The translations under genes were made by a program, and so were the position numbers. From positions 83,999 through 147,998 of the forward strand of contig JAEUKA010000053.1 in assembly GCA_016794465.1 (NCBI GenBank): a stretch of DNA of 64,000 bases. Reading direction: 5' to 3'. This DNA comes from Myxococcales bacterium (GTDB lineage Bacteria; Myxococcota_A; Polyangia; Palsa-1104; JAEUJZ01). Positions 35,609-60,821 of this stretch are shown here, in pieces (the stretch's first letter is position 1; each line of letters opens with the position of its first letter). The notes under the pieces are model-generated. The model made no database searches. It was not told where the DNA came from and saw only the letters and a program-made list of their open reading frames with translations.

Positions 35609-37054
35609 TTATTGCGGACGGAGTCCGGTCGGGCTGGGATGTTGGGGCCAGTCCGAAGGATAGATCAGGTAGGCCGTGCGGTGGGAGTGGGCCCACGCCG
35701 CCTCAAGTGCCGCGCGAGGATAAGTAAGCTGCACCGAAGCATCGTCGCGTGCCGCCGGATCGTTTACGATCACGTCACCGTTTTTCGCAAAGCCGCGCAC
35801 CACAATCAGGTGTCCGTTGGTCTTGCTGATTGGCGCACCGGGCAGCTCGCCGGCCTTGAACGCAATGCTGATGATGAGCGGGACTTTCGCCGCGATCCAC
35901 GGTGCCGCATGGGCAAAGGAATAGAAGCGCGTCACATAGCCGATCATTCCGAAGTTTGCTGCGTACGCGGTGTTAAACGGCCAGTTTCCGGTGCCCTTGT
36001 AGACCCAGTCATAACAGCCGATCGCAGCGTCGGGAACAGAGACGCTTTTGCGGGCATCTTTGGTGACCTGACTCCAGTACTCCATCACCATGCTGGTCGA
36101 GGTCGGACTGCACCAGACCTGGCCACCGCCACCATACGGCTGGTATTCCGGCTTCTTGTACTCTGCCAGCTCTTGGGAGCGCTGCGGAACCGCCAAGTTG
36201 GTGCCAAAGACACTCTCATCCGCTGCCATCGTGGGATACGCGGACTTGTCCATCGAGGCCACCGCTCCGATGAGATACACCGTCGGAAACGTCGCTCCGT
36301 CCGCACTAAACAGAGTCGCCGCCAGCTGATAGGAAGTCGCGGTTTTTTGATTGCGCAGCTCGAAGGTATCGGTGTCTACGTAACCCGTATCATCGGCGGC
36401 TACTTTGATGCTGTGACGCTTGACTGTCCCGGGATCACTTGCCCACACCGGCAGCCGATACCAGCTGCTTAGACCGCTTGGGAGTCGCACCCGGACCCGC
36501 AGCTGTAGCCACGTTCCCGGCGGTGTGATCGCATTCCAAGAGGCAATCAGGTGATCGATAGGAGCCCGCAGGGGAACCTCTTTGGACACCATCGTTCCAT
36601 AATAAAATGCGCCACCATTGTAGTGAGTGACGCCGCTTGGGAGTCCGCTGGGGAGCGGATCTTGGCCGGCACAGAGTCCGACTGCGGCATCAAAGTGAGC
36701 GGCTCCCCCGTCGATGTCTTCGCCCTGGCAGGACAGAGTTCCGGACTTTTGAGGAGACAGCGTGACACCGACCGGACTGGCAGGACCGCCACCGCGCGAA
36801 AGCCCGACACCTTGCCTTGACCACGCGGCAAAGTCCTGCTCTCCCTGCTGCAAAAAGGTGTGGTTGTACTGCAAGTTGGGATCAAGCGGCAGCGTCGGCA
36901 GATCGACTCCGGAAGTAGACGGAATCACCGCGCTCGGATCGGTCGGCGGCGGACTGCGGGTACAGCCTGTCGCAGTCAAAAGCAGTGCGAAAGGGAGTGC
37001 GAAAGGGAGTGCGAACAGAGAGCAACAGCGACGAAGAGCGTAGGGTCTGGACAT
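35609..37054 (-). CDS. Peptidase_C39_2-like cysteine peptidase lipoprotein
   Basis: Lipoprotein signal 'LFALPFALPFALLLTATGC' from the Met at 37054. 'GGGQVWCSPTSTSMVMEYW' fits the C39-like catalytic Cys motif. 'NGHLIVVRGF' fits the His motif. Confidence 0.5.
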   Translation of the reverse strand: MSRPYALRRCCSLFALPFALPFALLLTATGCTRSPPPTDPSAVIPSTSGVDLPTLPLDPNLQYNHTFLQQGEQDFAAWSRQGVGLSRGGGPASPVGVTLSPQKSGTLSCQGEDIDGGAAHFDAAVGLCAGQDPLPSGLPSGVTHYNGGAFYYGTMVSKEVPLRAPIDHLIASWNAITPPGTWLQLRVRVRLPSGLSSWYRLPVWASDPGTVKRHSIKVAADDTGYVDTDTFELRNQKTATSYQLAATLFSADGATFPTVYLIGAVASMDKSAYPTMAADESVFGTNLAVPQRSQELAEYKKPEYQPYGGGGQVWCSPTSTSMVMEYWSQVTKDARKSVSVPDAAIGCYDWVYKGTGNWPFNTAYAANFGMIGYVTRFYSFAHAAPWIAAKVPLIISIAFKAGELPGAPISKTNGHLIVVRGFAKNGDVIVNDPAARDDASVQLTYPRAALEAAWAHSHRTAYLIYPSDWPQHPSPTGLRPQ

Positions 37055-48864: not shown

Positions 48865-50493
48865 CTAGCGCAGCGGGACGTGCTCGCGGGCTGCGGCGAG
48901 GAGGCTGCCGTTTTCGCACAGGGAGCGCACCGCCTCGATCTCTTGGTAGAGGGGGCGGTCGCAGACCAGCTCGGGCACTCTCGACCGGACGACCCGATGG
49001 ACTGCGGACAGTGCGGCGGCTGGCATGAGGGGCGCTCGCAGCGAGATGCCTTGGGTCGCGCAGCACAGCTCAATCGCCAGCACGGTACGGACGTTGTCAA
49101 CGATGCGGGTCAGCTTGTCGGCGGCATGAACGCCCATCGAGACGTGATCTTCGCGCCCTGCCGACGAAGGAATCGAGTCCACCGACGCCGGATGCGCGAG
49201 GATCTTGTTCTCTGACACCAAGGCCGCCGCCGTCACCTGCGCAATCATGTAGCCGGAGTGAAGGCCGCTGTGGCGGACCAAAAACGCCGGCAGTCCCGAC
49301 GACAAGTGCGGGTTGACAAGCTGCTCGATGCGGCGCTCTGCGATGTTGGCCAGCTCGGCGGTGGCAATGGCCGCAAAGTCGAGCGCCTGCGCCACCGGCT
49401 GTCCGTGGAAGTTGCCGCCACTGACGATGTCAAAGCGCAGTCCGCCGCCGCCATCGCCGCCGCCATCGCCTGGGGCCGGCTCGTCCTCGACGAAGATCAG
49501 CGGATTGTCGGTCGCACTGCGCGACTCTTGCAGCAGCACATTCTGGGCGTAGCCGAGTCCATCGCGGGTGGCACCATGAACCTGCGGCATACAGCGCAGC
49601 GAGTACGGATCTTGGACCTTGCCGCAGCCACGGTGCGAATCGACGATCGGACTGTCCGCCAGGAGCGCGCGCAGGTTCTGCGCCGACACCGCCTGACCCG
49701 GCTGCGGTCGGGCGGCATGAATCCGGGGGTCAAACGCACGCGGCGTCCCGAGCAGGGCTTCCAGCGACATCGCCCCAATGACATCGGCGAGCGTACACAG
49801 ATCCAGCGCATCGGCGACGGCCAGCATTCCCATCGCGGTCATACACTGGGTGCCGTTGATCAGCGCCAGGCCTTCCTTCGCCGCCAGCACGATCGGCTGA
49901 AGCCCCGCCTCATCGTGAGCCTGCGCCGAGGTCTTGAGCTGCACCCGACCGGGCAGACCGACCTGCACCTCGCCTTCGCCGATCAGCCCGAGCGTCAGAT
50001 GCGCCAGCGGGGCCAGATCTCCCGACGCACCGACCGAGCCACGACTCGGCACGCAGGGCGAGATGCGCTGATTGAGCAGCTGACACAGGCGCTCTGCGAC
50101 GAAGAGCCGGACTCCACTGTGACCGAGCGAGAGCGTACAAGCGCGCAGCAGCAGCATCCCGCGCACCACCGGAATCGGCAGCAGTGGCCCCACCCCGGCG
50201 GCGTGCGAGCGAACCAAGTTGTACTGCAGCTCGACGATCTGCGTGGCCGAGATCCGGACATCGGCCAGAAAGCCAAAGCCGGTGTTGATGCCATAGACAC
50301 TGGCCGCGCTGTCTCCGCCTGCGATCAGCTGATCCACCACCGCCCGCGAGCGCTCGATCCGCTGCTTGGCAGCGTCGGAGAGCACGACCTCGCGACCTTC
50401 GTGACAGATCTGGCGCATCGCAGGGAAGTCCAGCTCATCGTGACCAATGCGGAACGGCGTGACGAGTGATCGGCTTGGCTTCGAGATCGACAT
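48865..50493 (-). CDS. histidine/aromatic amino acid ammonia-lyase (MIO enzyme)
   Basis: 'GSVGASGDLAPLAH' Ala-Ser-Gly MIO motif. 'VYGINTGFG' N-terminus. Start at 'MSISKPS' (50493). The listed 737-aa ORF runs upstream through the 21-bp tandem repeat and I treat that extension as an artefact. Confidence 0.8.
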   Translation of the reverse strand: MSISKPSRSLVTPFRIGHDELDFPAMRQICHEGREVVLSDAAKQRIERSRAVVDQLIAGGDSAASVYGINTGFGFLADVRISATQIVELQYNLVRSHAAGVGPLLPIPVVRGMLLLRACTLSLGHSGVRLFVAERLCQLLNQRISPCVPSRGSVGASGDLAPLAHLTLGLIGEGEVQVGLPGRVQLKTSAQAHDEAGLQPIVLAAKEGLALINGTQCMTAMGMLAVADALDLCTLADVIGAMSLEALLGTPRAFDPRIHAARPQPGQAVSAQNLRALLADSPIVDSHRGCGKVQDPYSLRCMPQVHGATRDGLGYAQNVLLQESRSATDNPLIFVEDEPAPGDGGGDGGGGLRFDIVSGGNFHGQPVAQALDFAAIATAELANIAERRIEQLVNPHLSSGLPAFLVRHSGLHSGYMIAQVTAAALVSENKILAHPASVDSIPSSAGREDHVSMGVHAADKLTRIVDNVRTVLAIELCCATQGISLRAPLMPAAALSAVHRVVRSRVPELVCDRPLYQEIEAVRSLCENGSLLAAAREHVPLR

Positions 50494-50589
50494 AGCGGCG
50501 TTCGTAGCACAGGGTCGGGGGATGTGTATTTTTCGCGGCTTTCTCTGGCGTCGCCGCCGCTGAAGGTGCGGTTTGTGCACTGTGGGCTC

Positions 50590-50725
50590 TTGCAAAGGAA
50601 AAAACCTGGCGGTTTTCTCCTTTGGAACCTCTTTCCCTTTGCGGACCTGAGAGGTCAACCCCCCCATCCCCCCTTGGAAGGGGGCAGCCCCTAACCCCAG
50701 CCCTTTCCCCGCTGGGGGAAAGGGA
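50590..50725. other. cluster of GC-rich hairpins in the ammonia-lyase upstream region
   Basis: Three paired elements. 'caaaggaaaaaacc'/'ggttttctcctttg' (50593-50624). 'ccccctt gg aaggggg' (50669-50684). 'ccctttcccc gctg ggggaaaggg' (50701-50724), a perfect 10-bp stem. Confidence 0.35.
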
Positions 50726-50818
50726 GCACGAGCCTCGGTGGAGGCTTTGGATGTAAACAGAGCTTTCGCTGACTTTGGGTTGTCTGGGCTCGCTTCGCTT
50801 TGCTTCCTGTTGCGGACA

Positions 50819-51222
50819 CTGGGCAAGACAAAACAAACCCCGGGCAAGACGAACCAGACACCGGGCAAGACAAAACGGACCCCGGGCAAGACGAAACGGA
50901 CCCCGGGCAAGACGAAACGAACCCCGGGCAAGACAAAACAAACCCCGGGCAAGACAAAACGGACCCCGGGCAGGACAAAACGGACACCGGGCAAGACGAA
51001 ACAAACACCGGGCAAGACAAAACGAACCCCGGGCAAGACGAAATGGACACCGGGCAAGACAAAACGAACCCCGGGCAAGACAAATCAAACACCGGGCAAG
51101 ACGAAACGAACACCGGGCAAGACAAAACGGACACCGGGCAAGACAAAACGGACACCGGGCAAGACGAACCGAACCCCGGGCAAGACGAAACAAACACCGG
51201 GCAAGACAAAACGGACCCCGGG
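50819..51222. repeat. tandem repeat, 19 copies of a 21-bp unit (consensus ccgggcaagacRaaacRRacM)
   Basis: Head-to-tail units, every one exactly 21 bp. Substitutions fall at fixed positions. A-rich, atypical for the genome. Open in all six frames. Confidence 0.9.
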
Positions 51223-51358
51223 CTGTATTTTTTTGGGTTCTTGCTTGCGTGGCTGCTGGCGACTGTGGAATCGATGAAGAGACAGCTATCCGCAGAAATG
51301 GCCGGTAACGCCGCTTGGATCTTCTTCGTGGGACCGAGACGGCAAGGAGGCAGTGCAG

Positions 51359-53350: not shown

Positions 53351-54361
53351 ATGCGGCGCTTGGTGCTGGTGCTTGGGGTCTTGGGGCCGCTCGGCTGTCA
53401 TCCGTCGGTGATGCCGTCAGATCAGCCGGTTGTCTCTGTCCATCGATTGCCACAGACGCAGACGCAGACGCAGACGCCTGCCCAAGAGCCAGCGCTTCCC
53501 GCCTCGCCCCAAGGTCTTGCGGGAACGTGGGACTGGCTGTATCGCGGCACCACCCAGCAGGGCGATCTGCGCATCGAGGAGGAAGAGTGGCACCTGTCCC
53601 AGCAGGGCACCAAGCTGTCCGGCGACTATCTGCGCCAGGTGACGACGCTGTCGCTCGATCAGAGGCCGTTTCGCTGCAACGGGCTGCTGGGGTTTTTGGT
53701 GACGACGCGGGTGCGGCTGCACGGCGAGCTACAGGGTGACAAAGTTCACTTGCAAGAGACAGCGGTAGAGCAGCAGAAGAACCCGTGCAGCGATGACCCG
53801 CTGCGTCCCAAGACCTATGAAGGGACGCTGGCCGATGGGAAGCTCTCGCTGCGCTGGCCGGGGGGCGAACAGCAGCTTCTGCGGCGACCTGCTGATAGCA
53901 AGCTGCCCTCGCTGACGCCTCCGCAAGGGGAATCGGCGGAGCGGCTGTCCGCTGCCGAGCTGCACCTGACCGGAGTCTGGGAGTGGCAGGCGCGCGCGAG
54001 CGGCGTGACCTACGGTGAGAGCGAAAGCGAAGAGGTCAGCGAGACAGAGGAGTGGCACCTTGTCGACCTGGGCGGCAAGCTGGCCGGCTACTACGATCGC
54101 ATCGTCGAGCGCAGCCGATCGAAAGGAATCTTTGCTTGCAGCGGCAGCTCGCGCAGTCGCTCGGTGACGCGCTACACCTTGCGTGGCCGACGCACCGGCG
54201 ATCACTTCTTTTTGAACGAGCAGGACTACAAAGCGGAGCCCAGTCCCTGTGACAACGGCGGGCGGCGCATCGATACCTATCGCGGCACGATCCTGCCGAT
54301 GCAGCGGCTGCTGATCGAGTGGAGTGGTGGTCAGCAGATCCTGAAGCGGCGGCGCGAGTAG
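53351..54361 (+). CDS. hypothetical lipoprotein with internally duplicated domain
   Basis: 'VLGVLGPLGC' lipobox. Two homologous halves ('EEEWHLSQQGTKLSGDY...' and 'TEEWHLVDLGGKLAGYY...'). A (QT)3 linker is encoded by a (cagacg)n microsatellite. Confidence 0.45.
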   Translation: MRRLVLVLGVLGPLGCHPSVMPSDQPVVSVHRLPQTQTQTQTPAQEPALPASPQGLAGTWDWLYRGTTQQGDLRIEEEEWHLSQQGTKLSGDYLRQVTTLSLDQRPFRCNGLLGFLVTTRVRLHGELQGDKVHLQETAVEQQKNPCSDDPLRPKTYEGTLADGKLSLRWPGGEQQLLRRPADSKLPSLTPPQGESAERLSAAELHLTGVWEWQARASGVTYGESESEEVSETEEWHLVDLGGKLAGYYDRIVERSRSKGIFACSGSSRSRSVTRYTLRGRRTGDHFFLNEQDYKAEPSPCDNGGRRIDTYRGTILPMQRLLIEWSGGQQILKRRRE

Positions 54362-60348: not shown

Positions 60349-60821
60349 AGCACGGCTGCCTCATCCTGAGCTGCGGGTCAGTGCAGCTGGCACTGCCAGT
60401 CGAGTGCATCGTCGAGGTGTCACGGATGGTTGCGCCCTGTGCGCGGCTGCTGCGGGTGCCAGGATATGTGCTGGGGGTGGTCGATTTTCATGGTGACTTG
60501 GTGCCGCTTATCGACCTGCCGGCCCGCTTGGGACTGACGGCGCCGCGTACGCCGGAAGCGCTGATTCTTGGGCACATCGTGTTTACCGAGCTGCCGAGTG
60601 GTCTGTGGGGCCTGGCTGTCGATGGCGTCTACGATCTGAGTGAGCTGCCGGTCGAGCCGCTGCCGGTCGAGCCGCGTCATCTGGTCGGGCTGCTGCTGGG
60701 CGCGCTGAGAGTGTCGGCGACGGAGCGCGCGCTGGTCCTGAATCCGGTGCAGCTGATCTCGGTGGTGACGCGGGCGCGGATTCGTGACGAGCTGGCCGAG
60801 CTGGCGGGAGGGCAGCTATGA
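60345..60821 (+). CDS. CheW-like coupling protein
   Basis: 'LALPVECIVEV...VPGYVLGVVDFHGDLVPLIDL' CheW fold. ATGA overlap with the upstream gene. Confidence 0.6.
   Translation: MKHGCLILSCGSVQLALPVECIVEVSRMVAPCARLLRVPGYVLGVVDFHGDLVPLIDLPARLGLTAPRTPEALILGHIVFTELPSGLWGLAVDGVYDLSELPVEPLPVEPRHLVGLLLGALRVSATERALVLNPVQLISVVTRARIRDELAELAGGQL

Follow-up and report, generated by a model that had tools for sequence, protein, structure and literature searches.

The divergent spacer between an ammonia-lyase gene (HAL) and panB in the DNA analysed here, a stretch of 64 kb which we call the window, contains a strictly phased 21-bp tandem repeat. The question raised by this locus is what such an array represents: a gene for a repetitive protein, a regulatory device of the neighbouring genes, a part of a mobile element or a minisatellite. 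The placement of the array between these two genes, as given in an earlier note on this DNA, was confirmed by the Pfam matches of both neighbours (Table 1). The true start of HAL is ATG 50493, and the exact 542-aa protein is also called on an NCBI contig; the real start of panB is ATG 51359, and the HAL-panB spacer of the window comprises 865 bp. The exact PanB protein was present on at least 23 contigs. The PanB homologues with source names came from Myxococcales or Polyangia MAGs, which implies that the organism is an uncultured myxobacterium. The earlier note had also regarded the extension of the ammonia-lyase ORF by 195 codons as artificial, and we came to the same view: the ORF grows from 542 to 737 codons by running into the array, and this 737-aa reading is an artefact.

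Table 1. Features of the HAL-panB locus and their positions in the window.
Feature	Position	Strand	Description or basis
HAL, histidine/aromatic ammonia-lyase, 542 aa	48865..50493	-	Pfam Lyase_aromatic, E 4.4e-188, residues 24-503
HAL-proximal spacer, "copy A"	50494..50590	.	collinear with first ~40-80 nt of relatives' native spacer
Strain-specific hairpin-rich segment	50590..50761	.	counterpart absent in relatives
T-rich pre-array segment	50762..50818	.	read off sequence
19 tandem 21-bp units	50819..51217	+	unit = CCGGGCAAGAC-R-AAA-C-RR-AC-M
Partial 20th unit CCGGGC	51218..51223	+	read off sequence
Native spacer, right copy, native positions ~24-155	51224..51358	+	alignment with six relatives
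panB, 3-methyl-2-oxobutanoate hydroxymethyltransferase, 321 aa	51359..52324	+	Pfam Pantoate_transf, E 1.3e-115

When the sequence was cut in 21-nt steps from 50819, all 19 units followed head to tail with zero indels. TRF reported a single array (50821-51223; period 21, 19.2 copies, 86% matches, 0% indels, score 547), which was by a wide margin the strongest tandem repeat in the 64-kb window, and the 19 matches to CCGGGCAAGACRAAACRRAC with at most three mismatches all fell inside it, compared with 0.03 expected. The three approaches together bear out the earlier description of 19 indel-free units of 21 bp, and TRF and the pattern search agree that there is only one array in the 64-kb window. 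The units are contiguous, lie within the 10-100-bp range of a VNTR or minisatellite and go far beyond chance. Substitutions recur at unit positions 12 (A11/G8), 17 (A6/G13), 18 (A10/G9) and 21 (C10/A9), while position 15 varies less often (A16/C2/T1) and positions 2, 8 and 16 show one-off variants; the claim that substitutions are restricted to four or five fixed positions is thus correct for the recurrent sites, with singletons besides. The 11-nt core of the window units is constant except for two singletons, and it is unchanged in 34 of the 36 units of the window and the related contig L021 taken together, in which four to five other positions vary. CRISPR, which the earlier note had discounted, was rejected here as well, because a CRISPR array requires repeats separated by spacers and the units of this array are directly contiguous.

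The base counts of the plus strand over 405 nt (A165, C127, G110, T3) and a GC content of 0.55-0.60 versus 0.64-0.73 in the flanking genes agree with the earlier picture of an A-rich array on a GC-rich background. They also account for the open reading frames. Any stop codon on either strand needs a plus-strand T, and the near-absence of stops in the six frames is due to the almost T-free plus strand; the openness of the array is therefore automatic and provides no evidence of coding. Moreover, the statement that all six frames are open holds for five of them, whereas the frame of the HAL extension contains one TGA that arises from the T in unit 13.

A gene within the array is very unlikely, judging from its sequence. 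The reading that would have to be accepted is a small basic heptad-repeat protein of 179 aa (GTG 50738 to 51277) with a hydrophobic N-terminus followed by (TPGKTKR)19 and a Cys-rich tail, and we give it a very small chance. The ORF is intact and frame-preserving (21 bp equal seven codons) in the window, L021 and the contig L011, AGGGAG lies 11 nt upstream of the GTG, and third codon positions make up three of the four recurrent variable sites, the fourth leading to Q/R. However, by our own calculation the chance of at least three of four sites falling in one codon phase is about 1/3, and the same pattern is equally true of a minus-strand frame. The codon usage, trained on 17 high-GC3 ORFs of the window, also speaks against this protein: the log2-odds per codon were +0.36 for HAL and panB, -0.005 to -1.04 for the six array frames and -0.09 to -0.21 for the GTG-50738 frame (-0.21 for the full ORF). 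The rare codons that had been pointed out in this frame are rare indeed, ACA, which frame 1 uses heavily, occurring at 1.3 per 1000 codons in real genes. A search of 5.8 billion (5.8e9) proteins returned zero homologues of the 179-aa ORF at E ≤ 0.001. As not even the ORF itself was found, gene callers have left it uncalled in every assembly of the locus; likewise, no gene is called between HAL and panB on L021 or L011. The sole Pfam match was below threshold (22.7 vs 26.4 bits).

The comparison of strains pointed in the same direction. Within the first eight codons of the ORF, 10 of 29 nt differ between strains with about 1% difference in HAL DNA, which changes the N-terminus (E2R, L4S, N7D), and in the contig L022 the repeat reads PGTSFQT instead of PGKTKRT in the ORF frame and the tail is in another frame. 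The locus is missing in relatives. The third positions of CCG, GGC and AAG are constant across the 36 units; in the array L007, which is coding, nearly all synonymous sites vary and the peptide GQDN[E/D]PP is kept. This positive control is a 20-copy 21-bp array from an Anaerolineae MAG (L007, 1922-2346), clearly coding and ending in a stop. The earlier judgement that coding is less likely is thus supported by the codon usage, the missing homologues, the unconserved ORF ends and the absence in relatives; neither genome-typical codon usage nor conserved homologues, as for a heptad-repeat protein gene, were found, and the array is intergenic and non-coding, as in a VNTR of the intergenic class. 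Coding in frame 3 (DKTDPGQ followed by a hydrophobic stretch) was rejected as well, given that a proper start is missing, the overlap with panB amounts to 250 nt, strain differences are non-conservative and the codon score is about 0.

Several other identities were considered and set aside. Rfam 15 gave only a spurious 17.9-bit match to a viral UTR model (gathering threshold 100), folding of the array strand showed no excess over shuffles (z +0.13), and the one terminator-like site was within shuffle expectation; a structured RNA or a terminator was rejected, as nothing significant was found for the array in Rfam or folding. The folding of the 5' part (z -2.5) is due to the upstream hairpins at 50701-50724 and 50732-50772. 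The variable sites are mostly A/G, as in DGR-like adenine mutagenesis, but six adenines per unit never vary, and there is no reverse transcriptase near the array. A CsrA/Rsm-type sponge RNA was dismissed because the only GGA lies at variable positions. A G-quadruplex and H-DNA were set aside by inspection, as the G-runs are 18 nt apart and the strand is not homopurine. Plasmid, phage and viral collections gave no match, and an origin from a plasmid, phage or virus was rejected on the same grounds.

The wedge-model curvature predicted for the array was above that of any other 399-bp window of the 64 kb, with end-to-end/contour ratios of 0.08 and 0.70, whereas the genomic minima were 0.65 and 0.78 (Bolshoy-type parameters; we give these values low weight). 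Random 21-bp-period units of the same composition gave a mean ratio of 0.43-0.50. Arrays of shuffled units are thus similarly curved on average, which implies that the curvature is generic to a period of two helical turns.

The strain comparisons, all drawn from metagenome assemblies of unspecified read type, revealed copy-number differences among close strains, as in a VNTR: 19 units in the window, 17 in L021 and 4 in L011, the last being a k=141 assembly that may be collapsed. The differences seen are all between samples. The contig L021 (GCA_009612975.1) encodes a HAL protein identical to that of the window (HAL DNA 99.1% identical), and its array has eight unit types in common with the window, with shared blocks in permuted order, as well as a run of four consecutive AAAG-variant units that is absent from the window. 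The last one to five units beside panB differ among L012, L014, L016, L021 and the window. In L022, whose PanB is 99% identical, the same position upstream of panB holds one window-type unit and units of a diverged type (CCGGGCACGTCRTTYCAAACM). The presence of diverged units beside a near-identical PanB implies that the array turns over much faster than its flanks. The proposal of a length-polymorphic VNTR, for which the earlier note had recommended comparing copy number across strains, is upheld by the different copy numbers, the permuted unit order and the different unit type in L022, and the array is a true VNTR.

Nearly all Logan contigs with identical PanB begin 176-184 nt upstream of panB, inside the array. 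We also observed that the Logan short-read unitigs L012-L020 and L022, which derive from many samples, end inside the array 176-264 nt upstream of panB. Contig breaks of this kind are expected for a repeat longer than the assembler k-mer. Metagenome assembly is prone to errors in repeats, and L011 has just four units, which could suggest that the array is an assembly artefact; however, the same units recur at the same junctions in independent assemblies from many samples. The alternative of a transcribed structured or sponge RNA fails on the missing Rfam match, the absence of excess folding and the lack of a conserved GGA-type motif, and we attach next to no credence to either of these two readings.

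Six relatives with PanB proteins 89-93% identical to that of the window (L023, L024, L145, L147, L148 and L149) keep the gene order GGDEF-DivIC-HAL<>panB-hypothetical-holin-like. The array is absent in all six, and their HAL-panB spacers are only 150-160 bp long. Local alignment placed native positions 8-39 of this spacer on window 50501-50540 (score 37 vs a shuffle maximum of 26) and positions 45-151 on window 51240-51354 (score 90). Copy A is also collinear with other HAL-upstream variants; its collinearity further out was judged by eye against L175 and L176. The sequence TGYATTTTTYGYGGSTT flanks the extra DNA left and right (50525-50540 and 51224-51239), and in L022 the right-hand copy extends over about 45 nt, as far back as the position that corresponds to the HAL start codon. 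These alignments indicate that about 700 bp, consisting of the hairpin-rich and pre-array segments and the array, are lineage-specific and have a partly duplicated native spacer at their borders, so that each gene keeps its own proximal upstream region. The lineage-specific block had been missed in the earlier note, as had T-poverty as the cause of the open frames and the second homologous locus described below.

The right copy retains blocks that are kept in all relatives, namely GG-N8-TTGC/CTTGC, TGTGGAATCGAT, GCCGCTTGGATC and AGGACCGAGACGGCAAGGAGG with the panB ribosome-binding site, and presumably these include the panB promoter. The conserved (C/T)GG-N8-TTGC block reads TGGGTTCTTGCTTGC in the window (51233-51247) and CGCGGCTTCCCCCTTGCTG in the native spacers of L023, L024, L145, L147 and L149, and the array ends about 17 nt upstream of it. 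For panB, the block may represent a -35-like CTTGC or a sigma-54-type -24/-12 element. The sigma-54 reading was set aside, since the motif is too low in information to judge it; a search for a sigma-70 consensus promoter found none.

The hairpin-rich segment contains an inverted repeat at 50590-50627 (17-nt arms, 88% complementarity, 4-nt loop) and another at 50701-50724 with perfect 10-nt arms (CCCTTTCCCC/GGGGAAAGGG) and a 4-nt loop. It matched no Rfam family, and the only other sequence matches were to the same locus in same-species contigs. Both hairpins look like REP palindromes, although further copies were not found; C-runs flank both of them, and short-read contigs including L178 and L181 end at the C-run around 50660-50673. 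In the pre-array segment, the final 6 nt (CGGACA) already match the end of the repeat unit, and weak direct repeats connect this segment with 50538-50646. Ten of the 12 left-spacer differences from L021 fall in a hypervariable patch at 50733-50761. In this patch, about 60 nt upstream of the array, the window and L177 differ from L021 and L011 at 10 of 29 nt, while the 240 nt around it are identical and HAL differs by about 1%, giving two discrete haplotypes. The window allele forms a perfect 6-bp stem, AGCCTC-GGTG-GAGGCT. Its appearance is that of a gene-conversion patch or a localised switch.

The region upstream of HAL varied further among contigs encoding an identical DivIC. The arrangement of the window recurs in L177, L178 and L181; in the other arrangements the sequence upstream of HAL is homologous to the window only over the 70-100 nt next to the ATG. 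As separate observations, L175 carries a 755-aa ribonuclease-domain protein and barstar upstream of HAL, L176 has a DUF6258 gene there, and in L174 and L179 a defence-system-like pair (AAA_15/SMC_N ATPase and DUF4276) lies between HAL and DivIC. The region upstream of HAL is thus a strain-level rearrangement hotspot with differing accessory DNA.

Smaller tandem repeats were noticed elsewhere in the window. HAL contains a perfect 12-bp x 2.3 repeat on the minus strand (49443-49470, CGCCGCCGCCAT) that encodes a Gly/Asp-rich insert (...PGDGGGDGGGG...); the protein has 542 aa compared with 531-539 aa in relatives, which may reflect a lineage-specific in-frame expansion at this site. Perfect repeats were also seen at 36984-37015 (12 bp x 2.7), 60644-60675 (15 bp x 2.1) and 53453-53477 (6 bp x 4.2), the last encoding QTQTQTQT near the N-terminus of a 336-aa protein (53351-54361).

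In the wider search for the repeat, metagenomes were scanned for CCGGGCA cores occurring three times at 21-bp spacing, which gave at least 120 stretches. In almost all of them the units were unrelated beyond the core used for searching. A cross-phylum "CCGGGCAAG 21-bp family" was therefore rejected: the genome and metagenome matches share only the searched core, and this by construction. Among the matches listed, the only truly homologous array was L052. Among its 14.5 units, CCGGGCACGTCGTTCCAAACA agrees with an L022 unit at 20/21 positions and CCGGGCACGTCAAAACGAACA with a window unit at 19/21. The DNA on either side has no relationship to the window, and 6-8 nt separate the end of the array from the TTGACC -35 of a mazEF operon. 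Upstream of mazE, an array is missing in relatives whose MazF proteins are 88% and 74% identical. The repeat family thus appears to occupy at least two unrelated promoter-proximal sites and to be strain-specific at both; the two loci, the HAL-panB spacer of the window and the mazEF locus of L052, lie on different metagenome contigs, each with one array.

Another pair of arrays came from the MAG MFD09495.bin.2.10, labelled "uncultured delta proteobacterium", in which two contigs carry 33 and 29 copies (L001, 6589-7283; L006, 1553-2158) of near-identical 21-bp units (CCGGGCAAGGCRGCGTCGWCG). These arrays look intergenic, the one on L006 being upstream of an IscA-like gene, and +1 indels (CAAGAAC) shift their register. 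We considered them as relatives of the window array and rejected this, since only 4 of 10 free positions match beyond the searched core; they are an independent multi-locus 21-bp minisatellite family. A literature search for 21-bp repeats or minisatellites in myxobacteria found nothing relevant.

We weighed a regulatory role and mobility as alternatives to a minisatellite of little function. The array may have a regulatory role, the candidate forms being a contingency locus or a binding-site array, both raised in the earlier note, or curved DNA. The specific form of this view is that a functional promoter-associated repeat tunes panB (and HAL) through regulator sites or curved DNA, with copy number modulating expression; we consider it rather unlikely, and the same applies to the variant in which putative sites for a regulator recognising CCGGGCAAGAC would lie on one helix face. 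Such a role is suggested by the constant core beside varying positions, by the period of two helical turns, by the predicted curvature, and by the ends of the arrays, which lie next to the block kept in all relatives at one locus and next to the mazEF -35 at the other. There is also a precedent, since promoter tandem repeats with variable copy number and documented expression effects are known from M. tuberculosis (PMC12817950). However, the array is missing from six sister lineages with the same genes and from the mazEF relatives. It is thus not needed for regulating these genes, and its absence from the six close relatives implies that it is not a conserved regulatory device. In addition, the L022 units are drastically changed outside CCGGGCA, the curvature is generic to 21-bp periodic arrays, no regulator gene is adjacent, and the orientation of the array to the nearest promoter differs between the two loci.

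That the array is part or a relic of a mobile or integrative element carrying the 21-bp family, with the duplicated spacer as a target duplication or att-like ends, we regard as unlikely, though worth keeping in mind. The L052 units are nearly identical to those of L022 (13-14 of the 14 unconstrained positions), and CCGGGCACGTCAAAACGAACA at the mazEF locus is almost a window unit. The extra block is bounded by duplicated native spacer (at least 16 nt in the window, about 45 nt in L022), and the region upstream of HAL holds different cargo in different strains. At the same time, integrase, transposase and terminal inverted repeats are all absent, a second copy of the segment 50585-50818 was found neither in the window nor at any of the other loci compared, and nothing matched in plasmid and phage collections or viral contigs. 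Moreover, the L052 array abuts native DNA on the opposite side compared with the window, and there is no common element structure. A further proposal would combine elements of both views: the CCGGGCA-N14 repeat may be a dispersed, transferable minisatellite of the Polyangia that settles or grows immediately before promoters (of panB in the window, of mazEF in L052) and acts as a length-tunable expression module. We think this improbable.

The best explanation of the array, which we consider quite probable, is a non-coding hypervariable minisatellite (VNTR) within about 700 bp of accessory-type DNA, an insertion in the short divergent spacer between HAL and panB. As a minisatellite it is ordinary for bacteria, of a kind already known, while the array itself is new. 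We infer the mechanism of its change from four features: shared units form a permuted mosaic, L021 has a run of identical units, the 21-bp register is strict and the core is homogenised. The array would change through slipped-strand mispairing at replication and through unequal recombination or gene conversion among its units. In this way the 11-nt core would be kept uniform, while a few old variant sites would be reshuffled. The array would have little or no selected function. At most, it may alter DNA geometry upstream of the presumed panB promoter, since with a period of two helical turns any bend in the unit is in phase. However, the constant core beside freely varying positions is a counterpoint to this explanation, as it could stem from selection for a protein-binding site and not from homogenisation alone, and the promoter-side placement at both loci might indicate a promoter-associated role.

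The array resembles several known systems. Like the MIRU minisatellites of Mycobacterium tuberculosis, which are bacterial VNTR loci as used in MLVA typing (PMC3635867), it consists of head-to-tail intergenic repeats with a unit of tens of bp and strain-variable copy number, its family occurs at more than one locus, and short-read assemblies fail on it. Unlike MIRU, it has a unit of 21 bp rather than 40-100 bp, unit order and sequence vary between strains in addition to copy number, the loci come from separate metagenome contigs instead of one genome, and there is no evidence here for small ORFs coupled to the flanking genes. With the promoter repeats of M. tuberculosis (PMC12817950) and classical contingency loci it shares a copy-number-variable repeat in a divergent spacer near a likely promoter; it differs from these in that an effect on expression is hypothetical here, the promoter itself is not duplicated and sister lineages lack the array. 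The staphylococcal STAR elements (PMC3532100) are likewise GC-rich short direct repeats at several intergenic loci that expand and contract and whose locations are not conserved between species, but STAR repeats are separated by spacers, whereas the units of the array are contiguous, and the sequences are unrelated. By analogy, the direct repeats of about 20 bp in helical phase with a core that would suit cooperative protein binding also recall iteron or centromere-like (parC/parS-type) arrays. In contrast to these, the array is chromosomal and located between housekeeping genes, and no Rep/ParR/ParB-type gene is adjacent, the neighbours being HAL, DivIC, GGDEF, PanB, holin-like and hypothetical proteins; the same neighbours are found in relatives without the array, and it is not an iteron or partition site by these findings.

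For this uncultured soil myxobacterial lineage, the array represents a hypervariable strain marker, and it explains why short-read assemblies of the lineage break at panB. It is also an annotation hazard, producing a false 195-codon N-terminal extension of the ammonia-lyase and spurious ORFs in the five other frames. If the CCGGGCA-N14 module did act as helix-phased regulator sites or curved DNA, it would generate expression variation at the strain level and possibly within populations. Should the promoter-adjacent dispersed family prove functional, it would be a case of minisatellite-based expression tuning outside pathogens.
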